Numbered from the stretch's first letter, positions 587 through 30,177 are shown. The stretch: 64,000 nucleotides of DNA from Patescibacteria group bacterium (GCA_022709865.1 JAKLIA010000001.1:210740-274739); one strand, 5' to 3'. The notes: generated from the sequence alone by a model not told the origin. Program-made: numbers and translations.

Positions 587-1348
587 ATGGAAGCAAAAAA
601 TCCGAATAAAAAAGTCATAGCAGTTTTACCGGCTTATAATGCTGCTAAAACCGTAGAAAAAACCGTTAACGATATTTCTCGAGAATGGGTGGATGAAATT
701 ATTTTGGTTGACGATGCTAGTCGCGATAATACAGTTGAAATAGCCAAAAAACTCGGATTAAAAACTTTTGTGCATCCTAAAAACCGGGGCTATGGCGGCA
801 ACCAAAAAACTTGCTATAAAGAAGCTTTGGCGGCCGGAGCGGATATCGCGGTTATGGTGCATCCGGACCATCAGTACGATCCTAAACTTGTGCCTGAGCT
901 TTTAAAGCCAATATTGGCGGGGGAAGCGGATGCGGTTTTTGGCTCACGGATGATGTTTCCTAAAAATGCTTTGGCTGGCGGAATGCCTTATTGGAAGTTT
1001 TTAGCTAATATATTTTTGACTTTTATTGAAAATCTTTTTTTAGGTCTGAGCTTGACCGAATACCATTCTGGTTTTCGGGCTTACGGCCGGCAGGTTTTAG
1101 AGGCGGTGCCGCTGGAAAAAAACTCCGATGATTTTGTTTTTGATACCGAAATTATTGCGCAAATAAAAGTGGCCGGGCTTAAGATCAAAGAGGTGCCGAT
1201 CGCCACACGTTATTTTTCCGAGGCTTCGCAGATCGGCCTGTTAAAAAGCATTAAATATGGCTTATCGGTTTTAAGCGTGATGAAAAAATATATTTTTTTC
1301 AGGCTAGGAATAAAAAAATACGAACAGTTTAAGATCAACCAAAATTAA
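587..1348 (+). CDS. Family 2 glycosyltransferase, Dpm1/GtrB-like polyprenyl-phosphate sugar synthase type
   Basis: N-terminal GT-A fold with VLPAYNAAKTVEKTV...VDDASRDNT and the D-x-D region, about 250 aa, typical of dolichyl/undecaprenyl-phosphate hexosyltransferases. Confidence 0.8.
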   Translation: MEAKNPNKKVIAVLPAYNAAKTVEKTVNDISREWVDEIILVDDASRDNTVEIAKKLGLKTFVHPKNRGYGGNQKTCYKEALAAGADIAVMVHPDHQYDPKLVPELLKPILAGEADAVFGSRMMFPKNALAGGMPYWKFLANIFLTFIENLFLGLSLTEYHSGFRAYGRQVLEAVPLEKNSDDFVFDTEIIAQIKVAGLKIKEVPIATRYFSEASQIGLLKSIKYGLSVLSVMKKYIFFRLGIKKYEQFKINQN

Positions 1349-1355
1349 TTTAGGC

Positions 1356-2441
1356 ATGATAAAAGATTTTTTTATAAAAAACAAAGAATTAGCCTTGATT
1401 TTTTCTTTGGCGATTTTAGGCTTAGTGGTTTCTTATTTTTATATTGGCTATGACCATAGATTAGAAAAAGATGCGATCACTTATTTTGAGGCAGTAAAGT
1501 TTTTGCAGGGGCAGGCGCTTGATGGGCCGGTGCCGATGAATAGGGTCTTGACCACGTCATTATTTTTGGGCTTAGCCACTTTTTTTAATTTTTTTCTTAA
1601 AGATTTTAGCTTAAGCGTGTCCGCCCTAAATATTATTTTTTACCTTCTTTTTATCGGTGTCTTTTATCTTTTAGCAAAAGAGATATACCAAAAAAGTAGG
1701 GTGGCCTTTTGGGGCTCTTTATTGGTTGTGTCTAATTATTATTTAATAGACCCGGGCAACGCCCACTTAGCGGATATGGGCGGCTGGTTTTTTCTATTTC
1801 TAGCCACATATTTTGCGGTTAAATATACCAATGCGGCCGATAGGAGGTTCTATTATTTAGCTATTTTGGCATCGGCAATAGGCGTTTTATACAAGGAATA
1901 CGGAGGCTTGGGCTTAGTTAACCTATTCTTGCTTCTATTAGTTTCAAATTTTTCCAATAAGCAGAAAATAAAAGACATTATTTTAGCTGGCTGTTTATTT
2001 TTGGTTCCGTTTTTGTCTTACCATGTTTTTGTTTATTTTAAATACCACTATTCTTATTTTGATTGGTATTTAGCGGTCAAATCAGTCTCTTTTGAGGCTG
2101 GGCGGCAATCCCGAGGGATAATTATAATTGCTAAGATATTGGGCTGGGTTTTTTCTCTTGGTTGGCTGGCTTGGCTGTTGGGAATCAAGGAAGAAATAAA
2201 AGCGCAAGATAAAGGCCGCTGGAAGATTCTAATCGCTATTTTGCCTACTTCTTTGTTCTTTATTATTTGGCCGGAGGTGGCTCAGCGCTTGGCATTTATC
2301 TTAGTGCCGTGGCTGGCTTTGGTCGCTGGTTTTGGGCTGTCCCGGATAAAGCCATATTGGGCTGGAGTTTTTGTTGCGGCTTATGTTTTATTTAATTACA
2401 ATATAAGGTCTTTAATAGATATAATTAATTTGCCTTTCTAG
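1356..2441 (+). CDS. Polytopic membrane protein, possible GT-C-fold glycosyltransferase
   Basis: At least 9 predicted transmembrane helices and no soluble domain. It sits between a Dpm1-like GT2 and an ArnT/PMT-like gene. Confidence 0.35.
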   Translation: MIKDFFIKNKELALIFSLAILGLVVSYFYIGYDHRLEKDAITYFEAVKFLQGQALDGPVPMNRVLTTSLFLGLATFFNFFLKDFSLSVSALNIIFYLLFIGVFYLLAKEIYQKSRVAFWGSLLVVSNYYLIDPGNAHLADMGGWFFLFLATYFAVKYTNAADRRFYYLAILASAIGVLYKEYGGLGLVNLFLLLLVSNFSNKQKIKDIILAGCLFLVPFLSYHVFVYFKYHYSYFDWYLAVKSVSFEAGRQSRGIIIIAKILGWVFSLGWLAWLLGIKEEIKAQDKGRWKILIAILPTSLFFIIWPEVAQRLAFILVPWLALVAGFGLSRIKPYWAGVFVAAYVLFNYNIRSLIDIINLPF

Positions 2442-2443
2442 CC

Positions 2444-3796
2444 ATGGATATTTTAAAAAAAACCAAAGATTGTTTTTTAAGCCATAAGGTTTTAATTATA
2501 ATCTTATTGTTGTCTTTTTTGGCTAGCCTGGCTTATTCTTTCTATTTTAAAATTGTGCCGGCGGTTGATGCCCGGGCCTACGATAATATTGCCCAGAATA
2601 TTGCCAGTGGCAATGGCTACCGGGAATATTTAGCAGGGGATTTGGCAAGTGATTATGCTATTGCCCGGGTGGGACCGCTTTATGAATACTTTTTAGCCGG
2701 GATCTATAAAGTTTTTGGCCATAGCTACAGCGTAGTTTGGCTTTTCCAAGCATTATTGCACGCAGCCAGCGCTTGGCTGATTTATTTGGCCGCGTTGCTG
2801 ATTTTTTCTGCCAACGATAAAAGAAAAAAAATCGCTATTGTGGCAGCAGCAATTTTTGGTTTTTATCCCGATCTAATAGAAATATCGGCGATGCTAATGA
2901 CCGAAACTCTCTATTTGTTCTTTGTCTGTTTAATGGTCTATTTTTTCTTTTTGTTTTTTTTAAAAGGCGGTTATCGGCTAGTTGCATTATTGGGGCTGTT
3001 CTCTGGGTTGGCTGTTCTAGCCCGGCCGCCGGTGCTTTTTTTAGTGCCGGTGATATTATTTTATTTTTGGCAGAAAAGAAATTGGCGCCAAGCATTGCTA
3101 TTTCTGGCCATTTTAATTTTAGTTTTTGTGCCCTGGACCGCCAGAAACTATCAGGTGTATGGGGAAATAATGCCATTTGGCTCAGCTGGGAACTTTAATT
3201 TTTGGATAGGCAATTACCATGGCGGGAACGGGGAGCAGGAGCCGACGATCGAGCAACAACAGTTCTTGCAAACCCATAAAGCGGTGGAAATAAACTCGGA
3301 ATCAATGAAGCATTTTAAAGAGTTCTTGTTTGCTTATCCGGCGGAGTTTTTAAAATTAACAGCGCTGCGCGTCAATAAATACTTCAGCATTATTCGCCCT
3401 ATGGGTTTTTGGTTCTATCAGGCTGGAATCGGGCAGATGATATTTGTTTTCTGTTCAGCTATTGCTTCGGTTTTTTTATTAGTTTTTGGGTTAGCTGGGG
3501 CAATAAAAGCTTGGTCAGCAAAAGAGAAAAAACTTAATTATTTGCTGGCTTTTTTAGCCTTTACTCCCTTAATAATTTTTGCTACAGTGGTGGAGACGCG
3601 ATACAGGTTTCAGATATATCCTTTATTGACAATTTGTGCTAGTTATTTTGCTATTGAGGCGTTAAATGTGCAGGGATGGCGGAGGCAAAAATTATTTATA
3701 GCCTCAGCCATAATTATTTTTTTTAATGGGTTTATAGATATGCTTTTGAGTTGGGAAAAGATAAAAGATAGATTTGGGTCATTTTTTAATTTTTAA
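2444..3796 (+). CDS. GT-C-fold membrane glycosyltransferase (ArnT/PMT-like, GT39/GT83 family)
   Basis: 450 aa with multiple transmembrane helices. The first loop region (VDARAYDNIAQN...GNGYRE) and the ARPPVLFLVPV motif resemble ArnT/PMT_2 proteins. Confidence 0.6.
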   Translation: MDILKKTKDCFLSHKVLIIILLLSFLASLAYSFYFKIVPAVDARAYDNIAQNIASGNGYREYLAGDLASDYAIARVGPLYEYFLAGIYKVFGHSYSVVWLFQALLHAASAWLIYLAALLIFSANDKRKKIAIVAAAIFGFYPDLIEISAMLMTETLYLFFVCLMVYFFFLFFLKGGYRLVALLGLFSGLAVLARPPVLFLVPVILFYFWQKRNWRQALLFLAILILVFVPWTARNYQVYGEIMPFGSAGNFNFWIGNYHGGNGEQEPTIEQQQFLQTHKAVEINSESMKHFKEFLFAYPAEFLKLTALRVNKYFSIIRPMGFWFYQAGIGQMIFVFCSAIASVFLLVFGLAGAIKAWSAKEKKLNYLLAFLAFTPLIIFATVVETRYRFQIYPLLTICASYFAIEALNVQGWRRQKLFIASAIIIFFNGFIDMLLSWEKIKDRFGSFFNF

Positions 3797-3829: not shown

Positions 3830-4822
3830 ATGAAAAAAGCGTTAATTACCGGCATCACCGGTCAAGACGGTTCTTATTTGGCGGAACTTTTATTAAAAAA
3901 AGGCTATATTGTGCATGGAGTTGTTAGGCGTTCGTCTAGCTTTAATCGGTCTAGAATAGAACATCTTTATGGGAGCCCAGATAAAGATCCTGCTGGTTTG
4001 GGAACTGCCGGTAATTTTCATTTGCATTATGGTGATATGACAGACTTTATTTCCCTGACAAATATTTTGTCTAAAGTAATGCCGGATGAAGTTTATAATT
4101 TAGCAGCGCAATCACATGTCCAAATATCTTTTGAGACTCCGCTTTACACAACTAGCGCAACCGGCGTTGGGGTTCTTAATTTGCTGGAAGCGATCAGGGT
4201 CCTGGGCTTGAAGTGCAAAGTTTATCAAGCTTCAACTTCAGAGCTTTTTTCTGGGGAAGAGGGCGAGGCGCCGCAAAACGAAAAGACACCATTTAAACCT
4301 AAAAGCCCCTATGGTGTTGCTAAATTGTATGGTTTTGAGATGGCCAGAATTTATCGCGAATCATATGGCATGTTTATTGCCAATGGCATTCTTTTTAATC
4401 ACGAATCTCCCAGGCGCGGAGAAAACTTTGTAACCAGAAAAATTACCAAAGGTATCGCCGCAATTTTAAAGGGAGAGAAGGATTCGATCTATTTGGGTAA
4501 TTTGAATGCTTCTCGGGATTGGGGCTATGCTCCCGAATATATGGAGGCAGCTTGGCGGATGCTGCAGCAAAAGAAGCCGGATGATTTTGTTGTTGCCACC
4601 GGCGAAACGCATACTGTTAAGGAGTTCGCTCAAAAAGCTTGCCAGCTGGCAGGGCTGGATTTTAAAAAAGTTATCAAGACCAATAAGGCTTATTTAAGGC
4701 CGAACGAAGTGAATTATTTATGCGGCGATGCTTCCAAGGCTAAAAAAGTTTTAGGTTGGTCGCCAAAAGTTAGGTTCAATGAATTGGTAAAAATAATGGT
4801 AGATTATGACACAAAAAAATAA
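3830..4822 (+). CDS. gmd: GDP-mannose 4,6-dehydratase
   Basis: MKKALITGITGQDGSYLAELLLKKGY...FHLHYGDMTD...YNLAAQSHV...ILFNHESPRRGENFVTRKIT is near-diagnostic for Gmd. Confidence 0.9.
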   Translation: MKKALITGITGQDGSYLAELLLKKGYIVHGVVRRSSSFNRSRIEHLYGSPDKDPAGLGTAGNFHLHYGDMTDFISLTNILSKVMPDEVYNLAAQSHVQISFETPLYTTSATGVGVLNLLEAIRVLGLKCKVYQASTSELFSGEEGEAPQNEKTPFKPKSPYGVAKLYGFEMARIYRESYGMFIANGILFNHESPRRGENFVTRKITKGIAAILKGEKDSIYLGNLNASRDWGYAPEYMEAAWRMLQQKKPDDFVVATGETHTVKEFAQKACQLAGLDFKKVIKTNKAYLRPNEVNYLCGDASKAKKVLGWSPKVRFNELVKIMVDYDTKK

Positions 4823-5915
4823 TCAAAAATATATTCGGGTTTGTGAGCCGTATATAACCCAAAAAGAAATAGATGCTGTTTCTCGGGCCATTAAAGAAGG
4901 CAATATTTCCAGCACCGCTAAATATGTTGGGCTTTTTGAAAAGGCTTTTGCCAAAAAGTTTGGCGTTAAATATGCTGTGGCAGTTAATTCGGGCGGATCG
5001 GCTTTATTTTTGGCCTTATGGGCCTTAGGCATCAAAAAAGGAGATGAAATAATCGTGCCAACTTTTACTATGGTGGCTACGGCTAATGCGGTTGTCCAAT
5101 GCGGCGCCAAGCCCGTGTTTGTGGACTGTGAAGAAAATGGCAATATAGATGTTAAAAAAATAGAAGAAAAAATTACCAAAAAAACTAAAGCAATAATTCC
5201 GGTGCATATTTATGGCCACCCTTGCGATATGGACGAAATTATGGCAATCGCTAAAAAACATAAATTGTTTGTTATTGAAGATACGGCTGAGGCCCATGGG
5301 GCTTTGTATAAAAATAAATTAGCCGGAACTTTTGGCGATATGGGCTGTTTTAGTTTTTATGCAAATAAAGTGATGACTACAGGTGAGGGTGGAATGATAA
5401 TTACCAATAACGCAGCTTTATATAAAAAATTAATTAAATTAAAGGCTTATTATTTTCATGACAAGCGCCATTTTTGGCACGAGCAGCAAGCTTGGAACTT
5501 AAGAATGAGCGCTTTGGAAGCATCTTTGGGTTTGGCGCAGCTGGAGCGCTTAAACGAGTTAGTCTCTTTGAGGCGAGAAAATGCCCGGTACTATACTGAT
5601 AAACTGCAAGGCCTGAAAGATTATTTAGTTTTTCCTTCAGAAAAGAAGGGGGCAAAATCGGTCTTTTGGATGTATGGATTGGTGCTTAAAAAGGGCAATC
5701 GAGACAAATTAATGAAGTTTTTGGAAAAAAATGGCGTGGAAACGAGAACCTATTTTTTCCCGATGAATTGGCAGCCTATTTATAAAGAAACAGAACCGTA
5801 TCCGGTAGCTGATCGGTTAGGCAGAAATGGATTATATTTGCCTTCTTCTTCTCATTTAACAAAAGCGGAAAAAGATAGAATAATCGGTCTTGTAAAAAAA
5901 TTCTTTAAAGCTTAA
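4806..5915 (+). CDS. DegT/DnrJ/EryC1/StrS-family PLP aminotransferase, probably GDP-perosamine synthase
   Basis: Fold-type I sugar aminotransferase. A Lys in the NK..TTGEGG region fits the PLP site. It overlaps the gmd stop by 17 nt, which favours a GDP-4-keto-6-deoxymannose substrate. Confidence 0.75.
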   Translation: MTQKNNQKYIRVCEPYITQKEIDAVSRAIKEGNISSTAKYVGLFEKAFAKKFGVKYAVAVNSGGSALFLALWALGIKKGDEIIVPTFTMVATANAVVQCGAKPVFVDCEENGNIDVKKIEEKITKKTKAIIPVHIYGHPCDMDEIMAIAKKHKLFVIEDTAEAHGALYKNKLAGTFGDMGCFSFYANKVMTTGEGGMIITNNAALYKKLIKLKAYYFHDKRHFWHEQQAWNLRMSALEASLGLAQLERLNELVSLRRENARYYTDKLQGLKDYLVFPSEKKGAKSVFWMYGLVLKKGNRDKLMKFLEKNGVETRTYFFPMNWQPIYKETEPYPVADRLGRNGLYLPSSSHLTKAEKDRIIGLVKKFFKA

Positions 5916-5917
5916 AA

Positions 5918-7006
5918 ATGGATAATTCGGTTTTTGTCATTCCCACTTATAATGAAAGGGAAAATATCGGCAGGCTTATTGAGAAAATATTTGAACTTTC
6001 GCCTGAGGCGAAAGTTTTGATCGTGGATGACAGTTCTCCTGATGGAACCGCTCAAACAGTAAAAGAGCTTCAGGGAAAATATCCGGGATTATTTTTATTT
6101 GTTCGTCCGGTAAAAGAGGGCTTAGGCAAGGCGTATGTGGCGGGATTCCAGAAAGTTTTTAACGATTTCCCGGAAGCGAAGACGATTTTTATGATGGACG
6201 CTGATTTTAGCCATGACCCCAATGATTTGCCGGCCATAATTGAAAATTCAAAAAAATATGATGTGGTTATCGGTTCTTGCCATATAAATCCCAAAGAGGG
6301 AATGAGCGAGTACCCTTTCAAGCGCGCGCTTTTGAGCCGTTGGGCTAATTTTTATTGCCGTTGTATTCTAGGCAGAAAATTACGGGATTGGACGAATGCT
6401 TACATGGCAATTTCTGTGCCGGTTCTTAAAAAGATAAGCTTTGATAAATTACAGGCCAAAGAGTTTGCTTTTCTTTTTGGTTTAAGATACCTGCTTTTAA
6501 AAAACAAGGCGACTTTTAAAGAGATTCCGACGATTATTCGATTAAGGAATGCCGGAGAGTCAAAAATGGCTCTCTCAACCATTATGGAAGCGGTAATTAT
6601 GCCTTGGGAAATAAGGTTTGGCCTTCCGGCTCAAGTAGTTAAGTTTTTGATCTCTGGCGGAACGGCTACCTTGGTCGGTTTTATCGCGCTCTACGCCTTT
6701 ACCGAGTTTGCGGGCATTTGGTACCTATTTTCAGTCGTTCTGGCTTTCATTTTTTCTTTTATCGTTAGCTTTACTTTGCAGAAGTTTTGGACTTTTGATG
6801 ACCGGCGAACGGAAAAAATGCACCACCAAGCCTTTTTTTATTTGTTGACCACTTTAACTAATTTGCTCTTAAACCTTTTGATAGTTTTTTTGCTGGTGGA
6901 AAAAGCCGGCCTTTGGTATATGCTAGCGCAATTTATAGCCGAGGCGGTGATAGCTGTGGAAAGCTTTTTGGTCTATAAGTTTGCTATTTTTAAGGTTAAA
7001 AAATAA
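5918..7006 (+). CDS. GT2 polyprenyl-phosphate sugar synthase fused to a C-terminal GtrA-like membrane domain
   Basis: N-terminal Dpm1-like GT-A domain (VIPTYNERENI...VDDSSPDGT...MDADFSHDP) followed by four transmembrane helices with GtrA-like features (LISGGTATLVGF...QKFWTF). Confidence 0.75.
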   Translation: MDNSVFVIPTYNERENIGRLIEKIFELSPEAKVLIVDDSSPDGTAQTVKELQGKYPGLFLFVRPVKEGLGKAYVAGFQKVFNDFPEAKTIFMMDADFSHDPNDLPAIIENSKKYDVVIGSCHINPKEGMSEYPFKRALLSRWANFYCRCILGRKLRDWTNAYMAISVPVLKKISFDKLQAKEFAFLFGLRYLLLKNKATFKEIPTIIRLRNAGESKMALSTIMEAVIMPWEIRFGLPAQVVKFLISGGTATLVGFIALYAFTEFAGIWYLFSVVLAFIFSFIVSFTLQKFWTFDDRRTEKMHHQAFFYLLTTLTNLLLNLLIVFLLVEKAGLWYMLAQFIAEAVIAVESFLVYKFAIFKVKK

Positions 7007-7027
7007 TACATAGCATTTTTATTTAGC

Positions 7028-8476
7028 GTGAAAAATATTTACGAAAAAGTTTTTATTGTTTTTTTAGTGGCCATTACTCTTTTTTTTGCGGCCTATAAAC
7101 TGACCGAAAGCCCGCCGACTTGGTTTGATGAGGGTTTTGTTATCCAGTCGGCTGAAAATTTGGTAAACGATGGAATTATGGGTATAAAGATAGAACCGGA
7201 TCTAATTGTCCATAATGCCACGTTTTTTTCAACCGGTTTTCCGCTGGCCTATCCCGTAGGCTGGGCGATGGAGCTTTTTGGCCGGGGGCTTTTGCCGGCA
7301 AGGTCGGTAATGGTTCTCTTCACTATTTTGTTGGTTTTGCTGTGCTATTTTTTGGCTAAAAAAATATGGGGGTTCAAAATAGCGGCTTTTTCTTCTCTTT
7401 TGCTTGTCGGTTTTGCTCCGTTATACGGTAACGGCCGGAACGTTTTGGGCGAAGTTCCCGGCGTTTTTTTTCTGGTTCTTTTTTTATATTATCTTTATAA
7501 GATCGAGAAAAAAAAGTTTGTTGGCAGCTATTCAGACTATATAATGGCTGGTTTATCTGTAGCGCTTTGTTTATCAACTAAGTCTATTTTTTTAGTTCTG
7601 CCTTTAGCTGTTATTTTGGCTTTAATTATTTTTTATAAAAACATAGCCTGGGATTGGCGGCGGATTTTGGCTGGCTTGGCGGCCGGAAGTGTAGTAATAG
7701 CAGTTTTATTAAAAACTCAATTTTTAGGCGGCGGGCCGCTAGTGGATGTTTTGCGAGATTATGCTAATCCTTATGCCGTAGGGGATATGTCAGTTCTTGT
7801 TTGGCAAAATATAAAAAGATTTTTTACGGAAGGCACGCCGATCTATTTGCTGGGAACAATGCTTATTTGGCTTCTGTCCTTGGCGATAAGAAAAATTAGA
7901 TCGGAAACAACTTCTTTAACAGAAATAGTTTCTTTCTTTTTTTCCTTGTTCATTTGCTTATCTTATTTGCGGATGGTCGGGTGGTATAGATATCTTTTTG
8001 CCGCCCAAATATTATCTTTACTTTTTTTGCCGGCTTCCTCGTTAATAATGTTTGAGTGGTTGAAAAGTAAGTTTGCCTGGAGCCGGAATATTAATATAAA
8101 AATAGTATTTATTCTATTCGGGGTTTTAATTGGGGCGCAATTCCTCTATTTGCATTATTTTTCCTGGACGGCCAGCTATTATTATAGCCGGGCAACGTCA
8201 AGCCTGGAAAATTATTTTAATCGAATTGATTTTTCCGAGAAGATATTCTTGTATAATTCTCCGGAAATTGCCACTTTTTTGCCGTCAAAAAATTATTACC
8301 AATATTTAAAAATTAATGATGAACTGATCTTAGGGCAAGACCAGCTGAAACAAATAACGGTTGGTGTGCCCAATAAAGTAATAGTCAATAATAAAGAAGC
8401 GTCGGTGATGGCTGATTTTCCTTTATATCAGGAGGCAGGGGCAGTTAGCCGGTATTTGATTTTTGAGAAGAAATAA
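7028..8476 (+). CDS. GT-C-fold membrane glycosyltransferase (ArnT/PMT-like)
   Basis: 482 aa. The first periplasmic loop carries a WFDEGF acidic motif like the catalytic D-E of ArnT/PMT. It is polytopic. The start is probably GTG at 7028, since there is no in-frame ATG upstream. Confidence 0.6.
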   Translation: MKNIYEKVFIVFLVAITLFFAAYKLTESPPTWFDEGFVIQSAENLVNDGIMGIKIEPDLIVHNATFFSTGFPLAYPVGWAMELFGRGLLPARSVMVLFTILLVLLCYFLAKKIWGFKIAAFSSLLLVGFAPLYGNGRNVLGEVPGVFFLVLFLYYLYKIEKKKFVGSYSDYIMAGLSVALCLSTKSIFLVLPLAVILALIIFYKNIAWDWRRILAGLAAGSVVIAVLLKTQFLGGGPLVDVLRDYANPYAVGDMSVLVWQNIKRFFTEGTPIYLLGTMLIWLLSLAIRKIRSETTSLTEIVSFFFSLFICLSYLRMVGWYRYLFAAQILSLLFLPASSLIMFEWLKSKFAWSRNINIKIVFILFGVLIGAQFLYLHYFSWTASYYYSRATSSLENYFNRIDFSEKIFLYNSPEIATFLPSKNYYQYLKINDELILGQDQLKQITVGVPNKVIVNNKEASVMADFPLYQEAGAVSRYLIFEKK

Positions 8477-8493: not shown

Positions 8494-9669
8494 ATGAACA
8501 CTAATTTTCTGAGACGTTTTAGGGAGATTTTTATTTTGGGGGCAGTTTTTTTAACAGCCCCATTTTTTTATTTTAGATTGTATTTAAAAAAAGCCTTTTT
8601 AAAAAATAAACCTTCCAAGCGGATTTTAATTATCGATAACGCAAAAATCGGGGATTTAATATGTGCTACACCGGTTTTTCGCGCTATAAAGGAAAAATAC
8701 GCGGATTCTTATCTAGCGGTATTGGCTGTGCCTAGGGTTGAAGAGATCTTGCAGAATAACCAAAACATAAATGAACTTATCATTTTTCCTTTAAACTCGA
8801 GTTTAAGCTTCAAAAAAACCTGGGAATTATTTAAAAAAATAAAAAGCGAAGATTTTAATGTTTGTATTAATTTAGTCCCCGGCACTCTTAATTTTATCTT
8901 GCCGTTTTTGGCCGGCATTCCAATCCGCATAACTTCAGCAAATAGCGAAATGGGATTTTTCTATAAAAAATTATCTTTTTTGTCCAATCGGAAGCTGGTT
9001 TATCAAAAAAACTCTTTATCCGTTAAACATTATTTAGGTTTGTTGGAGTTTATAGGGGTAAAAAATAGCAATTTAACGAAAGAAGTTTTTACGGATGATT
9101 TATCCCAAAATAAAGTTGCCGATTTTTTAGCTCAGCAAAAAATTAAATCCTCGGATATTATAGTTGGCTTAAGCCTAAGCGCGGGCAATAAAATCAAAGA
9201 ATGGGGAGCAAATAATTTTGCAAAATTAGCCGACGAAATTATTAAAAAATATAGTTTTAAAATTGTGGCTATCGGCAGCCCGGCCGATGAGTTAGTATTA
9301 AAGGATTTTCAGCGATTAGTCAAAGAAAATGTTATAATTACTTATAAGGACTTTTCTTTGAAAGAACTGCCATCTTTGATCAAGCGTTTTAATTATTTTA
9401 TTAGCGTTGATACCGGGCCTCTTTTTATCGCTAATGCTTTGGGTGTGCCGGTAGTTGACATTGTCGGCCCATTTAACTATGTTGAACAGGCGCCGTATTA
9501 TGAAAAATGCGAGATAGTAAAGCCGGAAAATATTGATTGTTGGCCCTGTCTCCATATTTGGAGCTCGAGTGTATTGGATTGCCAATTCGGCCATTATCAA
9601 TGCTTAAAGAAGACAACGCCGGAGATGGTTTTGAGGGCGCTGGAAGCTTTAATCAGGCGTTGTCATTAA
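8494..9669 (+). CDS. Family 9 glycosyltransferase (heptosyltransferase family)
   Basis: ILIIDNAKIGDLICATPVFRAIKEKY matches the N-terminal signature of GT9 ADP-heptose transferases. The GT-B C-terminal region reads VDTGPLFIANALGVPVV. Confidence 0.6.
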   Translation: MNTNFLRRFREIFILGAVFLTAPFFYFRLYLKKAFLKNKPSKRILIIDNAKIGDLICATPVFRAIKEKYADSYLAVLAVPRVEEILQNNQNINELIIFPLNSSLSFKKTWELFKKIKSEDFNVCINLVPGTLNFILPFLAGIPIRITSANSEMGFFYKKLSFLSNRKLVYQKNSLSVKHYLGLLEFIGVKNSNLTKEVFTDDLSQNKVADFLAQQKIKSSDIIVGLSLSAGNKIKEWGANNFAKLADEIIKKYSFKIVAIGSPADELVLKDFQRLVKENVIITYKDFSLKELPSLIKRFNYFISVDTGPLFIANALGVPVVDIVGPFNYVEQAPYYEKCEIVKPENIDCWPCLHIWSSSVLDCQFGHYQCLKKTTPEMVLRALEALIRRCH

Positions 9670-9677
9670 ATAAACTT

Positions 9678-10583
9678 ATGGAAAGACTGAGGCTTTTATT
9701 ATATAGGATATATAAAAAAATAATAAAAATATTTTCAGGCTACGGTTTGACTAATATTTTTTTGATAAGGTCAATCCATAATTTTATTAGCTTGCGCTTA
9801 AAATCTAGATTTGCCGTGATAAATGGCCATAAAATGTTTTTAGACAATAAAGATTCTTTATCTCTTTCGGTTGAAAAAGAATACGAGCCATTAGCCACGA
9901 GAATTGTTTCAAAAATAATAAAGCCCGGAGATGCAGTTTTGGATTTAGGGGCTAATATCGGCTACTATACGCTGCTTTTTGCTAAAATAGCTGGGATTAA
10001 CGGCAAGGTCTATGCTTTTGAGCCGGAGCCGGAGATATTCGGTATTTTAAAAAAGAATGTTGATGAGAACGGCTATAAAAATGTTATTTTGGAGCAAAAG
10101 GCTGTCTCCGATAAAAATACCATAGGGAAGCTTTATCTGCGTGCCGATAATCATGGCGATAATCGGATTTATGATTCGCGAGACGGAAGAGAGTTTGTTG
10201 ATATAGATTTAATTAAATTAGATGATTATTTTAGCGATAATAAAATAAAGATAGACTTTATTAAAATGGATATTCAAGGAGCGGAAATATTAGCTTTGTC
10301 TGGAATGATGAGGCTGTTAACGGAAAATGACCCCGTAATTATGATGGAGTTTTGGCCAATTGGCATAAAAAGAGCAGGCGGCGAGCCGAAAGAGTGCCTG
10401 AGCCTTCTGCGATCTTATGGATACGATTATTATTCTTTAAGCGAAGACGAGGCTGGCTTGAAAAAAATTACTGATGAGAAATTATTAAAGAATTATACCC
10501 CAGAAAATAAGAGGTATGCTAATTTGCTTTGCGTAAAAAATATTAATAAAAATAATATAATAGATGAGCTATTACTCAGATAA
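9678..10583 (+). CDS. FkbM-family SAM-dependent methyltransferase
   Basis: VLDLGANIGYYTLLFAK...KVYAFEPEPE...IDLIKMDIQGAE is the FkbM domain. I moved the start from the track's 9537 to the ATG at 9678, just after the upstream stop. Confidence 0.7.
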   Translation: MERLRLLLYRIYKKIIKIFSGYGLTNIFLIRSIHNFISLRLKSRFAVINGHKMFLDNKDSLSLSVEKEYEPLATRIVSKIIKPGDAVLDLGANIGYYTLLFAKIAGINGKVYAFEPEPEIFGILKKNVDENGYKNVILEQKAVSDKNTIGKLYLRADNHGDNRIYDSRDGREFVDIDLIKLDDYFSDNKIKIDFIKMDIQGAEILALSGMMRLLTENDPVIMMEFWPIGIKRAGGEPKECLSLLRSYGYDYYSLSEDEAGLKKITDEKLLKNYTPENKRYANLLCVKNINKNNIIDELLLR

Positions 10584-13158: not shown

Positions 13159-13722
13159 ATGTTGGAATTTTTAAGGTTTCAAAAGGGGAGCAGTTATTAC
13201 GACAAGAATTATATAAACAAAGAAAAAGGGCGGCACTACAAAGAAGTGGGGTTTTTGCCGATGTGGGAGTTAATGAAAATACCTGACTGTAAGATTTTAG
13301 ATATTGGCTGTGGGGTAGGGCATTTGGCGCACTATTTAAAGGATAAAGGCTTTAAAAATTACACGGGAATAGATTTCTCCGGCGTGGCGATAGAAAGAGC
13401 CAAGCAAGAAGTTCCGGAGTTTTCTTTCTGCCAAATGGATATTTTTTCAAAAGAGTTCAAGGAGCTGCTAAAAAATGATTTCGACCTATATATTTGTTGC
13501 GAAGTTTTAGAGCATCTCAGGGGCGATAAAAAATTACTTCAACTCTTAAAGCCCAGACCCATCATTTTTACCGTGCCGATATTCCATCACGAAAGCCATG
13601 TTAGGTTTTTCTTGACCAAGGAAGATGTATATAAAAGATACGAAGACATAGTGGATATCAAGGAATACGCGTTTTATAAAAAATGGCATATAATTAAGGG
13701 GCAAATAAGGCAGAAAAATTAA
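13159..13722 (+). CDS. Class I SAM-dependent methyltransferase
   Basis: ILDIGCGVGHLAHYL (motif I) and LYICCEVLEHL. Confidence 0.65.
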   Translation: MLEFLRFQKGSSYYDKNYINKEKGRHYKEVGFLPMWELMKIPDCKILDIGCGVGHLAHYLKDKGFKNYTGIDFSGVAIERAKQEVPEFSFCQMDIFSKEFKELLKNDFDLYICCEVLEHLRGDKKLLQLLKPRPIIFTVPIFHHESHVRFFLTKEDVYKRYEDIVDIKEYAFYKKWHIIKGQIRQKN

Positions 13723-16777: not shown

Positions 16778-18616
16778 ATGTTAGTTTGGGAAAAAGCGAA
16801 GCAATATTTTAAGAGCCATTATTTAGCAATTATTTTTGCTATTTTAGTCGGCTTTATTTATATTGCGCCGAACTTATTTTTTATTATTTCATTGGGAGCT
16901 GGATACCAGGGGATTCCAATGATGCAGACGGCTAATGAAGATTTTTATTTGGCTAGGATCCAAGAAATTATAGACGGCCATCCATTGGTCGGCTCGGCTG
17001 CTTTTTGGGAATATAAGGACCAGCCGCCCATGTCGCCTTCCGGCGGAGAATTCTTTTATGCCTTGCCAAGCAAGCTTTTTGGCATTTCTCCTGTTAATAT
17101 TCTAGTTATCAGCCGTTTTTTCTTTCCGGCTGTTTTATTTTTATTGATATATCATTTGATCAGGCGCTTGACCGGCAACCATAATTTTTTAACAAAAATT
17201 AACGCTATCGCCGGCGGATTATTCGCTCTTTTGGGGTATGACTTGATTGACTATAAAACCATTTGGAACTTTTTTGCTGGAGGGGCGGTTTTGCCGGGGA
17301 ACTTTTTGCTTTGGTCCCGGCCGGTGAATCCCATTATAGGTGGTTTATTATTGTTTTCTTTTTTGCTTTGCCTGGTAGCGATAATTCAAAGAAGTAAATA
17401 TATTAAAACATCAATAGCCGGCGCTGCGGTTTGCCTGGCCTTGATGTTCGAGAATTATTTTTTTAGCTGGGGAATTGCTTTATCTGTTTGGTTTGTCCTT
17501 TTGGCAATTTATTTTATTAAAAAAGAGTTTCAATTAACAAAAAGACTAGCCATAGCTGTCTTTGGCGGATTCATTCTATCGGCTCCATATTGGTATATGT
17601 CTTGGCAGGCGAGCCATAACGCAATGTATCAAGAGGTGGTATTGCGTAGCGGGCTTTTTTTAACCCATTATCCGTTATTAAATAAATTAATGCTGGCAGT
17701 TCTGGTAGTCTATGTATTTTTTGTCGGCTTGCCTATTGTTGGGCGGTTGCGGCTTGTCGGCGGCTGGAAAGAATCCCTAGTCTTGGGGCTGAAAAAAATT
17801 GCGGATTGGCAATGGATCTGTTTAGCTTTTATTATTGGTTCCCTGGTAAGCTATAGCCAGCAGATTATAACCGGCAGGACTATTTGGCCGTACCACTTTG
17901 TGCAATACACTATTCCTCTGGCTATTGTTGTTCTGATGGTTCTGTTCTGCAATGTGATCGGAGCAAGCTGGCCCAAGATTTGGCGGTTAGGGATGTTTGT
18001 TTTGGTCGGCGTCTTTTTAATTTGGGGCAGCTTCAATCAAATAAATGTTTACGGCCGCTATTACGATTATTATAAAGGCATGCAATCGTATCAGCCGGCC
18101 TTTGATTGGTTGAACAAACAAGAAAAGGATTGCGTAGTTTTAGTCGGCAACGATTTTAAAAGCGGCTATCCTCTTTTTGGGCTGATTCCTGCGTTTACCC
18201 ATTGCAATGTCTATGATTCGTCTTCCGTCGCCTTGCTTATGCCGCAAGAACGCATTTACCATAATTATTTGACCCATTTGCGGCTTCAGGGGGTTAATGG
18301 AGAATCCATAGAGGAATATTTAAAAAATGATAATGGAGAATATCGCGGCTACTTGTTTTCTAATTGGAAGGGCTTATTTAAAGGAGTAAAAGATTTCCCG
18401 GATTTTACAGACCGTTTATTGGAAGAAAGGCTAAAAAATGTTCCAGAAGATTATCGCCGGTTTTTTTCTAAGGATTTTCGAAGCGAACTAAATAAATATC
18501 GGTTGGATTATATCCTTAGTGTCGCTCCAATTAATGAAAAAGTAGGGGAGCAATTGGCCGGAATAAAAATGGTATATAGCTCAAATAATATTTATATTTA
18601 CGATTTTAATAATTAG
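16778..18616 (+). CDS. Large polytopic membrane protein, possibly a GT-C-like glycosyltransferase or polymerase
   Basis: 612 aa, at least 12 predicted transmembrane helices. An acidic motif in the first loop (EDFYLARIQEI) and a C-terminal soluble domain of about 170 aa. No confident family assignment. Confidence 0.35.
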   Translation: MLVWEKAKQYFKSHYLAIIFAILVGFIYIAPNLFFIISLGAGYQGIPMMQTANEDFYLARIQEIIDGHPLVGSAAFWEYKDQPPMSPSGGEFFYALPSKLFGISPVNILVISRFFFPAVLFLLIYHLIRRLTGNHNFLTKINAIAGGLFALLGYDLIDYKTIWNFFAGGAVLPGNFLLWSRPVNPIIGGLLLFSFLLCLVAIIQRSKYIKTSIAGAAVCLALMFENYFFSWGIALSVWFVLLAIYFIKKEFQLTKRLAIAVFGGFILSAPYWYMSWQASHNAMYQEVVLRSGLFLTHYPLLNKLMLAVLVVYVFFVGLPIVGRLRLVGGWKESLVLGLKKIADWQWICLAFIIGSLVSYSQQIITGRTIWPYHFVQYTIPLAIVVLMVLFCNVIGASWPKIWRLGMFVLVGVFLIWGSFNQINVYGRYYDYYKGMQSYQPAFDWLNKQEKDCVVLVGNDFKSGYPLFGLIPAFTHCNVYDSSSVALLMPQERIYHNYLTHLRLQGVNGESIEEYLKNDNGEYRGYLFSNWKGLFKGVKDFPDFTDRLLEERLKNVPEDYRRFFSKDFRSELNKYRLDYILSVAPINEKVGEQLAGIKMVYSSNNIYIYDFNN

Positions 18617-20279: not shown

Positions 20280-22073
20280 ATGTTTTTACAAAAAAGTAGA
20301 CTCTATCTGTTGTATAAGCTATTTCGCCGGGGATTCCGAGGCCTTCGTTGGCAGATCTTAGCGTTAACAGCTTTTGGCATTCTGGGGGGCCTGCTTGAAG
20401 GTGTGGGCATTAATGCCGCAATCCCAATGTTCTCGTTCTTAGTTGGCGGCGTTAACTTAGGGAACGATTTTATCTCGTTGGCAATTCAACAGTTTTTTGA
20501 TTTTTTTAATATCAGATTTAGCTTTCGCTATCTGCTGATTTTTATTTGTTCGTTGTTTATTCTGCGCGCGGTAATCTTATTTGCTTGCAACTATTTTCGC
20601 ATCAAGATCGCGGCTGGCTATGAGGAAGAAACAAGGAATCGTTTATTCAACAAAACCTTGAAGGCTAACTGGCCGTTTTTGCTTCAGCAAAGGCTAGGGT
20701 ATCTTGATACTATTTTGGCAGTCAACATCCAGAACAACAGCTTATTGCTCCGTTATCTAAGCGGGGCGGTTATGACTCTGGGCGGCTTATCCATGTATAT
20801 TTTAGTTGCCTTAAATATTTCTTTTAATATAACTGTGGCAACATTATTGCTTGGCGCTTTGATGATATTTGTTTTTTATCCGTTAGTGCGTAAAACTAAA
20901 TTGATTTCCCAGGAAAAAGAGGCGATGAATAAAGTCGTTGCCCACCATATTAATGAAAACATTTTAGGAATGAAAACTATTAAAGCTATGCGGCTTGGCG
21001 GGGCGGTGGCGGCGGTGGGCAAGGAATACTTTAAAAAATTAAAGAACTTTACAGTAAAAGTCGCCTTTTTCCAGATCTTAACAGATTCATTGATTCAGCC
21101 AATAGGCCTTATTTTTATTTGTTTGGTTTTTGCAATTTCTTATAAATTGCCCGGATTTAATTTTATCGCCTTGGCGGCTGTTCTTTATTTGATCCAGCGG
21201 ATATTCACTTATATCCAACAGTTGCAATCGCATTTGCATACGGTCAGCGAATCTATTCCTTATTTGCAGGGCACGATCGCCTATGAAAATATGATCTCAA
21301 AAAACGAAGAAGCAGACGAAGGGCAGGACGCTTTTGTCTTTAAAAAACAGCTGGAGTTCAAAAATGTTGATTTTAATTATGAAGGCGGTCGAGAAATCCT
21401 GAAAGGATTAAGCTTCTGCCTGAAAAAAGGAGAGCTGCTTGGCTTGATCGGCCCGTCTGGCGCCGGAAAAACCACGGTTGTGGATTTGATTTTGCGCTTG
21501 CTTAACCAAACCGGAGGAGAGATAGAATTAGATGGAAAGAGCATAAATAAAATTAATTTAGCTTCTTGGCGGGAAAGCATTAGCTATATTGCCCAAGATA
21601 TCTATTTAAAAAACGATACAATCGCTGAAAATATTAGGTTCTACGACGAATCAATTACCGACGAACAGGTAGCGGAAGCCGCAAAAATGGCTAATATACA
21701 CCAGTTTGTTAATAGTTGCCCTAAGAAATTCGATACTATCGTTGGTGAACGGGGAGTGCAATTATCGGCCGGACAGCGCCAACGAATTATTATCGCTAGG
21801 GCCTTGGCTCGACAGCCGCAGATTTTAGTTCTAGATGAGGCGACCAGCGCCTTGGACAATGAATCCGAGACTCAAGTCCAGCAAGTTATTGATAATTTAA
21901 AGAATAAAATTACGGTTTTGGTTATCGCTCACCGCCTTTCTACAATAATTAATGCTGATAAACTATTGGTTTTGGATGATGGCAAGATCGTTGAAGAGGG
22001 CAGGCCGCAAGAACTACTTAAGGATGCCAATTCTTATTTTTATAAAGTTTATAATATAAAAAATAATCAGTAG
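20280..22073 (+). CDS. ABC transporter, fused permease-ATPase exporter (MsbA-like)
   Basis: Six N-terminal transmembrane helices, Walker A GPSGAGKTT, signature LSAGQRQRIIIARAL, Walker B ILVLDEATSALD. Confidence 0.85.
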   Translation: MFLQKSRLYLLYKLFRRGFRGLRWQILALTAFGILGGLLEGVGINAAIPMFSFLVGGVNLGNDFISLAIQQFFDFFNIRFSFRYLLIFICSLFILRAVILFACNYFRIKIAAGYEEETRNRLFNKTLKANWPFLLQQRLGYLDTILAVNIQNNSLLLRYLSGAVMTLGGLSMYILVALNISFNITVATLLLGALMIFVFYPLVRKTKLISQEKEAMNKVVAHHINENILGMKTIKAMRLGGAVAAVGKEYFKKLKNFTVKVAFFQILTDSLIQPIGLIFICLVFAISYKLPGFNFIALAAVLYLIQRIFTYIQQLQSHLHTVSESIPYLQGTIAYENMISKNEEADEGQDAFVFKKQLEFKNVDFNYEGGREILKGLSFCLKKGELLGLIGPSGAGKTTVVDLILRLLNQTGGEIELDGKSINKINLASWRESISYIAQDIYLKNDTIAENIRFYDESITDEQVAEAAKMANIHQFVNSCPKKFDTIVGERGVQLSAGQRQRIIIARALARQPQILVLDEATSALDNESETQVQQVIDNLKNKITVLVIAHRLSTIINADKLLVLDDGKIVEEGRPQELLKDANSYFYKVYNIKNNQ

Positions 22074-23606: not shown

Positions 23607-25211
23607 ATGAAGAAGAAAAAAAGAATATTATTAATAATGCCTTCTTTCTGGGATCCGATCTGCCCGCCACAGGGCATCGTTTCTTTGAGGTCATATATAG
23701 AGAAGCTGGGATACGAGGTTTTTATCAGAGACTTTAACACAGACCCTCGGCTGTTTGATCTGCAAAGAAAATATTTTGAGCTTGGCTTAAAATTATTTCC
23801 TCATTGGAAGTTCTTAAATATTTTTAGGAACGGTCCCAGGTATTTTGCCCGGCATCAATTAGCCTGGTTTTTTGGGCGGCAATTGGGCACAAAATATGAA
23901 AAACTAGTGGGGCTAATTTTGAATTTTGACGGCAAAAGCAAATGCACCAAAGGGATGATCAAGCGCTTTGATTCTATCGTTGCCGAAGCCTTTAAGCTAA
24001 CCGAAGCAAAAACAGCGGAATTAGTAGGCCAGATAAAACCCGACATAATCGGCTGCACCATGCTGGAGAGCACTTTCCCCACGGCGTTGGCTATTTTAAA
24101 AACAGCGAAAAAAAATAAACCAAAAATTAAAACTTTACTTGGCGGGCCGGGGCCATTAATGGGTGATAAGATAGAGCATGGAAATCTGCAAAGAATTTTG
24201 GATAAGTGCCCTTGGATTGATACGATTATTTGCGGAGAAGGGGAAATCTTGTTCGAATATTATCTGAAAAAATCTTTCGGCAATAAAAAGATTATAGGGA
24301 TAGAGGATTTGAAAAATATAAAAAAAGCGGCTAGCGTTATGGATCTGCTAGTTGATATTAACAAATTACCAGAATCGAATTTTGAAGGCTTAACGATAAA
24401 AAGATATCTTTGGCTTTCTAGCTTTACTTCTAGGGGTTGTCCGTTCAGATGCGCTTTTTGCTTTGAAAACTCTTTTTGGAAAAGATTTAGGATGAAGAAC
24501 ATTAAAAAAGTGTTGAAAGAATTCAATCATTTATCCGATTCGTACCAAAATAATAAGTTTTATTTGTCGGATTCTTTAGCTAATCCCATAATGAATGACC
24601 TAGCTTTTGGCTTAAAGAATGGCGGCACAAGGTATGAATACGATACATATATCCGAATAACCGATGATTGTTTGGATAATAAAATAGTGAAACGGTGGGC
24701 GGATAGCGGTTTGGCTAGAGCGAGAATCGGCGTTGAATCAACCTCTCCGCGCGTTTTAAAGTTAATGAATAAGAAGATAACTACAGAACAAATAGGAAAA
24801 AGTTTGAATAATTTTTCCCGGAATGGTATTTATACTTCAACTTTATGGATTGCCGGTTTTCCCGGGGAGACAAAGAAAAATTTTTTAGAGTCGGTCGCTT
24901 TTTTGAAAAAAAATTGCCAGAATATTTATCAAGCTGATATCTGGGAGTTTGTTTGTTCTCCAGAGGGATTTTCTATTGCGGAGGAAGGTATCAACCATCA
25001 GGCAAAACTAGCTTATCCTGAAGAATTAGGTAGTATTCTCCCTTTGCGATATTTTGAGCTAGAAGGCTACATTTCTCCGGCGGAACGTTTTGAAAGGATT
25101 AGTCTTTTTGAAAAAGCAAGAATAAGGGCTGGCATCCCAAATCCGTATTCGATCAGCGATTTGTTGCGGGCAAAAGACCGCTGGATTAAGCTTGGCCATA
25201 AACATAATTAA
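23607..25211 (+). CDS. B12-binding radical SAM protein (class B radical SAM), paralog 1
   Basis: N-terminal cobalamin-binding domain (IIGCTMLESTFPTALAIL...LLGGPGP) and a radical SAM CxxxCxxC motif (SRGCPFRCAFC). Nearly identical over about 900 nt to 40772-42385. Confidence 0.75.
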   Translation: MKKKKRILLIMPSFWDPICPPQGIVSLRSYIEKLGYEVFIRDFNTDPRLFDLQRKYFELGLKLFPHWKFLNIFRNGPRYFARHQLAWFFGRQLGTKYEKLVGLILNFDGKSKCTKGMIKRFDSIVAEAFKLTEAKTAELVGQIKPDIIGCTMLESTFPTALAILKTAKKNKPKIKTLLGGPGPLMGDKIEHGNLQRILDKCPWIDTIICGEGEILFEYYLKKSFGNKKIIGIEDLKNIKKAASVMDLLVDINKLPESNFEGLTIKRYLWLSSFTSRGCPFRCAFCFENSFWKRFRMKNIKKVLKEFNHLSDSYQNNKFYLSDSLANPIMNDLAFGLKNGGTRYEYDTYIRITDDCLDNKIVKRWADSGLARARIGVESTSPRVLKLMNKKITTEQIGKSLNNFSRNGIYTSTLWIAGFPGETKKNFLESVAFLKKNCQNIYQADIWEFVCSPEGFSIAEEGINHQAKLAYPEELGSILPLRYFELEGYISPAERFERISLFEKARIRAGIPNPYSISDLLRAKDRWIKLGHKHN

Positions 25212-25654: not shown

Positions 25655-25667
25655 TGATTTTATTTTT

Positions 25668-27972: not shown

Positions 27973-27975
27973 TTT

Positions 27976-28356: not shown

Positions 28357-28361
28357 TTTAT

Positions 28362-30176: not shown

Positions 30177-30177
30177 T

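Follow-up and report, generated by a model that had tools for sequence, protein, structure and literature searches.

The 64,000-nucleotide stretch of a Patescibacteria group bacterium genome analysed here (GCA_022709865.1, JAKLIA010000001.1:210740-274739; hereafter the window, in which positions are counted from the first letter) carries four consecutive genes, at 3830-8476, which probably encode a three-component extracytoplasmic glycosylation system. The lipid-linked donor of the system would be polyprenyl-phosphate-perosamine or a very close derivative of it, and we put the probability of this reading at about 0.6. A lipid-linked perosamine had been proposed in an earlier note on the same DNA, and the proposal is now supported by a Per-like aminotransferase of the DegT family, a remodelled sugar pocket in the glycosyltransferase family 2 (GT2) enzyme and a DE motif in the GT-C fold glycosyltransferase, all of them features read from sequence. 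The genes and domains are as follows (GDP, guanosine diphosphate; DPMS, dolichyl-phosphate mannose synthase; AF2, AlphaFold2).

3830..4822, + strand: gmd, GDP-mannose 4,6-dehydratase, 330 aa (TIGR01472, PF16363)
4806..5915, + strand: per, DegT-family pyridoxal phosphate-dependent aminotransferase, 369 aa, predicted GDP-perosamine synthase (PF01041, PDB matches)
5918..6640, + strand: GT2 catalytic domain and interface helices (residues 1-241) of a fused GT2/GtrA protein, predicted GDP-perosamine:polyprenyl-phosphate perosaminyltransferase (PF00535)
6641..7006, + strand: GtrA/DPMS-type transmembrane domain of four helices, C-terminal part (residues 242-358) of the same fused protein, with a putative role as flippase or in binding the carrier (PF04138)
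7028..8476, + strand: GT-C fold glycosyltransferase, 482 aa, GT39/PMT_2-like, predicted to transfer from a lipid donor to an extracytoplasmic acceptor (PF13231, AF2/Foldseek)

All four genes called in the earlier note exist on the + strand as open reading frames (ORFs) of 3830-4822, 4806-5915, 5918-7006 and 7028-8476, and their Pfam and NCBIfam domains are far beyond chance. The genes had been described as overlapping or separated by 2-20 nt. The gmd and aminotransferase genes do overlap by 17 nt (4806/4822), an overlap also kept in the related loci L001 and L012, and 2 nt separate the aminotransferase stop (5915) from the GT2 start (5918); the last gap, from the GT2 stop (7006) to the GTG start of the GT-C gene (7028), is 21 nt and falls outside the range given. 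A Candidatus Portnoybacteria metagenome-assembled genome contains a protein identical to the 5918 product, which makes the host a bacterium of the candidate phyla radiation (CPR)/Patescibacteria. Such a host is most likely monoderm, so that the transfer described earlier as periplasm-facing is better called extracytoplasmic.

By equivalog-level homology, the 3830 product is a GDP-mannose 4,6-dehydratase (Gmd) making GDP-4-keto-6-deoxy-D-mannose: it scored 456.5 bits against TIGR01472 (cutoff 415) and matched PF16363 with an E-value of 8.6e-129. Orthologues of gmd with 75-89% identity hold the same position in L001, L012, L014, L018 and L019. The 4806 product is a full-length DegT/DnrJ/EryC1 aminotransferase (PF01041, E 6.3e-115), of which the best PDB matches were the structures of GDP-perosamine synthase (Per) from Caulobacter crescentus (3BN1/3DR7/3DR4; 293 bits, 43.8% identity over 354 residues). 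ColD, ArnB and PseC scored 156, 150 and 137 bits, respectively, placing the enzyme with GDP-perosamine synthase and not with ArnB or PseC, which act on uridine diphosphate (UDP) sugars; this agrees with the sugar that the earlier note had predicted, and the grouping with UDP-sugar enzymes that the note had named as refuting its proposal was not seen. For PDB entries 7B0M and 7B0D, the second and third best matches, the literature search returned nothing relevant. The Schiff-base lysine, found in SFYANKVMTTGEGG, aligns with Lys186 of Per (the residue mutated in 3DR4), and a ColD-type dehydratase identity was rejected since this catalytic lysine is present. We strongly infer from these sequence data that the aminotransferase makes GDP-4-amino-4,6-dideoxy-D-mannose (GDP-perosamine). 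The pairing of gmd and per is kept in L001, L012, L014 and L018.

We also considered whether the aminotransferase is a LegC- or PseC-type enzyme for the nonulosonic-acid pathway 25 kb downstream (30.4-36.1 kb: NeuB, NeuC-like, PseB/LegB-like and cytidine monophosphate (CMP)-transferase genes), its place beside gmd being incidental. The genes of that pathway are present, the 4806 gene is the sole DegT in the 64-kb window, in which no dedicated aminotransferase for the nonulosonic-acid set was found, and the LegC hidden Markov model is its top NCBIfam match. Nevertheless, this match lies well below its cutoff (327 against 420 bits), as do those to PseC (281 against 423.5) and ArnB (NF008658, 206 against 631). 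The 17-nt overlap ties the gene to gmd, and the overlap or pairing persists on contigs with no NeuB in view (L012, L014 and L018). We regard the nonulosonic-acid role as very improbable.

The 5918 product combines a GT2 domain (PF00535, E 3.9e-26) with a GtrA domain (PF04138, E 2e-21, 76.8 bits, residues 242-358). Its closest solved relative by sequence is the type III DPMS of Pyrococcus furiosus (PfDPMS, 5MLZ; E 1e-31, 31% identity), and the match covers residues 6-341, that is, both the catalytic and the membrane domains, with ArnC matching much more weakly (E 1e-7). The AF2 model (predicted local distance difference test score, pLDDT, 84) retrieved PfDPMS (E 5e-20), ArnC and GtrB in this order in the Foldseek search, and the top 22 matches were all one of these three polyprenyl-phosphate glycosyltransferases. 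The ArnC equivalog NF007986 gave 37.4 bits against a cutoff of 529. The GtrA domain aligns with the transmembrane domain of PfDPMS, and is 47% identical to a separate 126-aa GtrA protein encoded after an unfused GT2 in L018.

The closest solved relative is a GDP-mannose enzyme, and database relatives of the GT2 domain (45-59% identity) are mostly proteins of ~235 aa labelled polyprenol monophosphomannose (PPM) synthase. Both facts favour an alternative in which the GT2/GtrA protein is an ordinary polyprenyl-phosphate-mannose synthase serving PMT_2 GT-Cs, and the product of Gmd and Per goes to cytoplasmic GT4/GT2 enzymes for the synthesis of a perosamine-containing polymer, with export by an ABC or a phosphoglycosyl transferase route. 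The window does contain several GT4/GT2 genes, an ABC exporter and a Bac_transf phosphoglycosyl transferase. The sugar pocket of the GT2 and the genes around its relatives bear on this alternative, and both are described below.

In PfDPMS, Asp39 binds guanine, Asp89 and His94 contact the mannosyl O2 and O3, Arg117 and Lys178 hydrogen-bond the mannosyl O6/O4, the dolichyl phosphate is held by Arg117, Arg131 and Ser135, the A-loop includes Arg202 and Lys208, and Phe177 is the back-door gate (PMC5526996). The window GT2 retains D38 (guanine), D94-A-D96, H99, R136, S140, R210 and K216, corresponding to Pf Asp39, Asp89/91, His94, Arg131, Ser135, Arg202 and Lys208. In an alignment of 121 sequences, Asp39, the DAD motif, Arg131, Ser135, Arg202 and Lys208 were found in all, and His94 in all but one. 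The sugar side of the pocket differs. The canonical bacterial state is GS-R117-Y118 and G176-Y-A-F, whereas the clade linked to gmd and per has GS-[C/A/S]-H and E176-F-A-F. Between 12 variant and 104 canonical clusters, nine positions were discriminating, given here by PfDPMS position with the state in the variant clade:

R117: C, A or S
Y118: H
G121: K, S or P
G122: E or D
W127: Y
G158: A
G176: E
197: changed
199: changed

The window protein has C121, H122, K126, E127, Y132, A161 and E182 at Pf positions 117, 118, 121, 122, 127, 158 and 176, respectively. It therefore lacks the mannose-type signature of Arg117 (of the GSRY motif), Tyr118, Gly121-Gly122, Trp127, Gly158 and Gly176, although each of these seven residues is 88-100% conserved in the 104 canonical clusters (Arg117, 100%); the loss of such near-universal residues argues against the mannose alternative. 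Gln93 to Ser and Lys178 to Ala were rejected as clade-specific changes because they proved to be the general bacterial state in an alignment of 120 sequences.

On balance, the pocket loses one arginine, which touches mannose along its 4/6 edge, and acquires two carboxylates (E127 and E182). Perosamine differs from mannose exactly at C4 (NH3+ for OH) and C6 (CH3 for CH2OH). The direction of the change appears to fit a perosamine substrate, and E127 and E182 could pair with its 4-NH3+. A profile search of 1.84 billion representatives at 50% identity showed the variant clade to be rare, because only 2 of the best 150 representatives lacked Arg117; 144 of 146 further representatives retained it. 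The hmmalign alignment of the best 150 was mis-registered at Pf176-178, and only positions 117-158 were used from it, the 176 column being taken from MAFFT alignments. To judge by its sequence, the GT2 is not an ordinary GDP-mannose enzyme; exclusive use of GDP-mannose was an outcome that, in the earlier note, would have refuted the proposal. The enzyme belongs to a rare sub-clade with a remodelled pocket, which is always found beside a Per-like gene.

This linkage was seen in all eight distinct variant loci, namely the window, L001, L004, L012, L014, L017, L018 and L019 (GT2 identity of 49-86%). gmd is also adjacent in six of the eight; one of the others is cut by the contig end, and the remaining one, L017, has no gmd nearby. 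In L004 (79%), L001 (74%), L014 (65%) and L012 (61%) the Per-like gene lies immediately upstream of the GT2 gene, and so does gmd wherever the contig extends. L012 and L014 have flanks unlike those of the window: HD and Dabb genes precede the set and a divergent methyltransferase comes after it, followed in L012 by an orthologue of the 7028 GT-C. GT2s of ~238 aa without a GtrA domain (49-59% identity; L017, L018 and L019) retain the linkage to per as well. The gene order is gmd, per, GT2, a separate 126-aa GtrA, a divergent methyltransferase and a GT-C orthologue in L018 (with a Wzx-like gene in the flank), DegT, gmd, GT2, methyltransferase and a GT-C orthologue in L019, and per followed by GT2 in L017. 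A fragment upstream in L017 was tested as a possible Gmd C-terminus and is not one. Orthologues of the 7028 GT-C follow the variant GT2 in L001, L004, L012, L018 and L019; the contig of P0017 starts at the GT2 and its context is uninformative. The linkage to per thus persists despite divergence to ~50% identity, fusion or fission of GtrA and altered flanks. The recurrence of the set gmd-per-GT2(-GtrA)-GT-C in L012, L014 and L018 without the other cluster genes of the window beside it, on contigs that are short, speaks against the mannose alternative.

Loci with the canonical signature served as controls. Four of them, L007 (44%), L008 (41%), L015 (37%) and L010 (36%), had no gmd or per nearby, and a PMT_2 GT-C follows or flanks the GT2 in three (L007, L010 and L015). 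GTDB representative genomes and JGI metagenomes were then scanned with the variant-clade alignment, and among the matches listed, to which the counts that follow refer, at least 160 loci were obtained, all of them canonical PPM-synthase loci with at most 46% identity. Arg117 is present in all 160, and Gly176 in all but L094 (Ser). None of the 160 carries both a Gmd above 300 bits and a Per above 300 bits. Together with seven loci from the four canonical lookups, the Gmd and Per pair is found in 0 of 167 canonical loci, all with Arg117, against a Per-like gene beside the GT2 in 8 of 8 variant loci; this absence, too, speaks against an ordinary mannose enzyme. A naive Fisher test of 8/8 against 0/167 gave p = 5e-14, a value that ignores phylogeny and really measures the retention of one ancestral linkage, because the variant clade is monophyletic.

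Two groups of canonical loci deserve separate mention. In L026 (Methanosarcinales), L030 (Beckwithbacteria) and L046 (Paceibacterota), gmd lies directly upstream of a full-length GT2/GtrA gene, and in L168 it lies ~2.9 kb upstream of the GT2 (gmd identity of 53-57% in these loci); all four have the canonical GT2 signature and no accompanying aminotransferase. Here gmd is either a chance neighbour or a sign that other 6-deoxyhexoses serve as lipid-linked donors, and such adjacency, which can be incidental, is a point in favour of the mannose alternative. On balance, we consider that alternative unlikely, yet the most probable competitor of a perosamine donor. The second group has a different DegT (35-39% identity to that of the window), which adjoins the GT2 on its upstream side in L092 and L098 and is found 1-1.6 kb ahead of it in L091 and L163; in L163 a Gmd at 56% identity accompanies it. 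Their GT2s retain Arg117, with V/I-V at Pf178-179, and Lys208 is replaced by Asn in L091, L092 and L098 (L163 was not read there). L091, L092 and L098 are from Peribacteria and Coatesbacteria genomes. These GT2s may represent an independent lineage of amino-sugar polyprenyl-phosphate transferases.

Some of the variant loci carry one more gene. Immediately downstream of the variant GT2/GtrA, on the opposite strand, we noticed a class-I S-adenosylmethionine (SAM) methyltransferase of 216-221 aa with a hydrophobic C-terminal tail (45-71% identity), at the following positions:

L012:4787-5440, - strand: tail-anchored methyltransferase
L014:3285-3935, - strand: tail-anchored methyltransferase
L018:5174-5839, - strand: tail-anchored methyltransferase
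L019:2566-3231, - strand: tail-anchored methyltransferase

It lies between GT2/GtrA and GT-C in L012, L018 and L019, and the L014 contig ends within it. An orthologue was looked for in the window and not found, the best match (13159-13722) having 25-27% identity. The enzyme might add a methyl group to the amino sugar or to the lipid-linked form of it.

That this methyltransferase is kept within the module in L012, L014, L018 and L019 lends some weight to the idea that the architecture is as proposed and the sugar is another one: the 4-keto-6-deoxy intermediate itself, a 3-amino (mycosamine-like) isomer, an epimer, or an N-methylated or N-acylated perosamine. The regio- and stereochemistry of the DegT product cannot be fixed from sequence, and the top NCBIfam match, LegC (327 bits against 420), is another aminotransferase of a GDP-4-keto-6-deoxyhexose. 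Furthermore, the DegT beside gmd in L019 is divergent (43% identity), and the pocket signature of that locus is a different one. The best characterised homologue of the window enzyme, on the other hand, is a genuine Per (44% identity) and the catalytic lysine is present, and the module in the window encodes no acyltransferase, epimerase, reductase or methyltransferase. A different sugar seems improbable to us, somewhat more so than an ordinary mannose donor, and perosamine remains the preferred assignment.

The 7028 product matched PMT_2 (PF13231, E 2.7e-9), and no PDB chain was matched at the sequence level; a fold search was used instead. With its AF2 model (pLDDT 93.7; pTM, the predicted TM-score, 0.93), Foldseek returned ArnT first (5EZM/5F15; E 1e-9, TM-score ~0.6), followed by STT3/AglB/PglB, ALG9/12, DPY19, AftA and PMT. 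The model gives the protein a GT-C fold, whereas its donor and acceptor are predictions. We found 125 homologues, and the few with a source name are from CPR bacteria (Kaiserbacteria, Harrisonbacteria, Parcubacteria and Minisyncoccia) and annotated as GT39. In 62 of the homologues W32, D34, E35 and G36, which stand directly after the first transmembrane helix, are invariant, as are Y133, G136, G141, E142, P144, K185, R321 and Y322. The DE motif, for which the earlier note had suggested a check, is therefore in place. Several homologues are fusions, either of GT2 and PMT_2 (P0184, P0189, P0196, P0198, P0203, P0205 and P0219) or of GtrA and PMT_2 (P0199, P0202, P0211 and P0213-P0216). These sequence fusions are an independent Rosetta-stone link of the GT-C family to lipid-linked sugar synthesis.

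Putting the four genes together, the system would work in five steps. Gmd would convert GDP-mannose to GDP-4-keto-6-deoxymannose, from which the Per-like aminotransferase would make GDP-perosamine. On the cytoplasmic face, the DPMS-type GT2 would move perosamine from GDP onto polyprenyl phosphate, a step that we infer because the sites for GDP, metal and lipid phosphate are retained, the pocket is remodelled and the linkage to per is invariant. By analogy with known systems, the fused GtrA domain may help the glycolipid to cross the membrane. Finally, the ArnT-fold GT-C, with D34-E35 as its loop motif, would transfer perosamine on the outer face of the membrane, where the acceptor could be a protein, a lipid or a polymer of the wall. 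Candidate acceptors are the polymer of the surrounding cluster and a surface protein; a CPR bacterium would not be expected to have lipid A.

No N-formyl- or N-acetyltransferase and no deacylase (ArnA- or ArnD-type domains) was found in the module or in the related L012, L014 and L018; the scan for such masking enzymes covered most, not all, ORFs of at least 170 aa in 1-12.4 kb and of at least 100 aa in 12-64 kb. From the absence of masking and unmasking enzymes it follows that the sugar would travel as a free amine, which would put a positive charge on the cell surface. It is attractive to speculate that this CPR lineage uses an undescribed donor, polyprenyl-phosphate-perosamine with an unmasked amine, made by a retuned DPMS-derived enzyme, from which an ArnT-fold GT-C installs a cationic 6-deoxy sugar on the surface. 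We offer this fuller picture tentatively, and with clearly less confidence than the lipid-linked perosamine as such.

Several points weigh against a perosamine donor. That E127 and E182 would face the sugar is a prediction from sequence. Because Arg117 also positions the lipid phosphate in PfDPMS, it may have been lost through a change of acceptor or of mechanism and not of sugar. Canonical bacterial enzymes already have Ala or Ser in place of Pf Lys178, which limits how far the archaeal structure can be carried over to the bacterial pocket. The linkage within the monophyletic variant clade is one retained evolutionary event, not eight independent ones. L017 carries per with no adjacent gmd, and L019 has the more divergent DegT (43% identity) together with a pocket signature of SQ/QF. 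Finally, the GT4/GT2 enzymes, the phosphoglycosyl transferase and the ABC exporter of the window could use GDP-perosamine cytoplasmically.

A glycan cluster of ~36 kb, all on one strand (+), surrounds the four genes. Directly upstream of gmd, and outside the core four genes, is a second putative lipid-linked sugar module at 587-3796, which may rely on the GtrA domain within the 5918 product as well:

587-1348, + strand: GT2, 253 aa, no GtrA, AglJ/PpgS-like (NCBIfam matches to AglJ, PpgS and Dol-P-hexose transferase, all below cutoff)
1356-2441, + strand: PMT_2 GT-C (Pfam/NCBIfam)
2444-3796, + strand: PMT_2 GT-C (Pfam/NCBIfam), with a 69%-identity orthologue in L001

A small GT2 and an orthologue of the 2444-3796 product precede gmd in L001, and not in L012, L014 or L018. 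Downstream of the core genes we found GT9, several FkbM and class-I methyltransferases, GT4/GT2 genes, the ABC exporter, B12-radical-SAM genes, FkbH/ACPS/MaoC genes and NeuB/NeuC-like/CMP-transferase genes. The exporter and phosphoglycosyl transferase genes named above are located as follows:

20280-22073: ABC exporter
45498-46817, opposite strand: Bac_transf phosphoglycosyl transferase

The FkbH-like/ACPS/MaoC and nonulosonic-acid sets lie within 25217-36114, and the latter comprises an aminoglycoside-NAT-like gene, NeuB, two Epimerase_2 genes, a PseB/LegB-like dehydratase and a CMP-transferase. Three radical-SAM genes are found within or next to the cluster (40-570, cut by the window edge, 23607-25211 and 40772-42385), two of them with a B12-binding domain. 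The recurrence of this enzyme type in the related clusters L001 and L008 suggests unusual C-methylation or similar glycan chemistry. For the FkbM methyltransferase ORF at 9537-10583, the TTG start call overlaps the GT9 gene (8494-9669) by 133 nt, and the true start is probably downstream because the L004 orthologue has only 301 aa. The 612-aa ORF at 16778-18616 had no Pfam match; its product distantly resembles, at 23% identity (E 1e-12), a pair of large paralogous membrane proteins encoded after the variant GT2 in L017, and may belong to an unrecognised family of membrane glycosyltransferases. Just after the glycan cluster, 37178-40696 encodes a protein of 1172 aa that combines a lamin-tail domain with a PQQ-like beta-propeller; it may be a surface protein and could conceivably serve as a target of glycosylation.

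To our knowledge, the polyprenyl-phosphate monosaccharide donors form a short list of mannose, glucose, galactose, N-acetylglucosamine/N-acetylgalactosamine, 4-formamido-4-deoxyarabinose, galacturonic acid, arabinofuranose, ribofuranose and a few more. If our reading is correct, a 4-amino-4,6-dideoxyhexose would be added to this list, widening the chemistry of extracytoplasmic glycosylation, and the GT2 would be a natural experiment in retuning the DPMS pocket from mannose to an amino-deoxy analogue by ~7 substitutions. It would also be one of the few concrete statements on how the envelope is decorated in Patescibacteria, bacteria whose epibiotic lifestyle is founded on their surface biology. 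Such a charge-modifying decoration would be analogous to D-alanylation or the addition of 4-amino-4-deoxy-L-arabinose (L-Ara4N), and could affect resistance to cationic peptides or attachment to host cells. The enzyme pair could serve the glycoengineering of cationic surface sugars.

The module had been called Arn-like in the earlier note. The label holds for the logic, that is, the order of events, and not for descent, since the relatives of the genes are Per, a DPMS-type polyprenyl-phosphate mannose synthase and a CPR GT39, and there is no equivalent of ArnA or ArnD. The Arn system (PmrHFIJKLM, L-Ara4N) runs in the same order from a 4-aminotransferase through a polyprenyl-phosphate-aminosugar synthase and flipping to the transfer of a cationic sugar by a GT-C; among solved folds, that of ArnT comes closest to the 7028 product, and ArnC is the second-closest fold family to the GT2. 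In contrast to Arn, the module is devoid of ArnA (decarboxylase/formyltransferase), ArnD (deformylase) and ArnE/F, and scores far below the cutoffs for ArnB (206 against 631) and ArnC (37.4 against 529). The chemistry of Arn is that of a UDP-pentose, whereas the module would handle a GDP-hexose, with a guanine-reading Asp as in DPMS and an amine that is apparently never masked.

With PfDPMS (5MLZ/5MM0/5MM1) and the bacterial Ppm1-like synthases the GT2/GtrA protein shares an identical architecture, a GT-A fold GT2 with interface helices and a four-helix GtrA/DPMS membrane domain. It differs from them in the residues of the sugar pocket (Arg117 to Cys, or to Ala/Ser in relatives) and in its packing behind gmd and per. 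Because the gene is translationally packed behind these two, the predicted donor is GDP-perosamine and not GDP-mannose.

The same parts, a polyprenyl-phosphate glycosyltransferase, a GtrA-type protein (fused here) and a GT-C, make up the three-component systems, of which GtrA/GtrB/Gtr* of Shigella and Salmonella, CsbB/GtcA/YfhO, GacI/J/K/L and the pentofuranose systems are examples (Kelly et al. 2024, PMC11127046). The module has a GT2 with the DXD and lipid-phosphate residues, a four-helix GtrA and a GT-C with a conserved acidic residue in its first loop outside the cytoplasm. It differs from these systems in drawing on a GDP donor, where theirs comes from UDP or phosphoribosyl pyrophosphate, in having two dedicated sugar genes and in its CPR host.

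Amino-sugar decorations masked by N-acetylation include those of mycobacterial PpgS/Rv3779 (galactosamine on arabinogalactan), Francisella FlmF2/NaxD/FlmK and Bordetella LgmABC. These systems likewise bring a cationic amino sugar to an envelope polymer via a GT2-made polyprenyl-phosphate sugar and a GT-C. They start from a UDP-N-acetylhexosamine and need a deacetylase, whereas the module would start from GDP-mannose, yield a 6-deoxy-4-amino sugar and do without a deacylase.

In the Per systems known to us, GDP-perosamine, usually N-acylated, is used by cytoplasmic glycosyltransferases for O-antigen. Compared with Per/RfbE of Caulobacter crescentus, E. coli O157 and Vibrio cholerae O1, the aminotransferase of the module is 43.8% identical to the Caulobacter enzyme and is paired with Gmd; the module is predicted to couple GDP-perosamine to a polyprenyl-phosphate glycosyltransferase instead. 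A full-text literature search of incomplete coverage returned no paper linking perosamine to a polyprenyl-phosphate donor or to a GT-C. The module would be a Gtr-type system in its working and Arn-like in its purpose, and by descent it is composed of Per, a DPMS/PPM synthase and a GT39-like GT-C.

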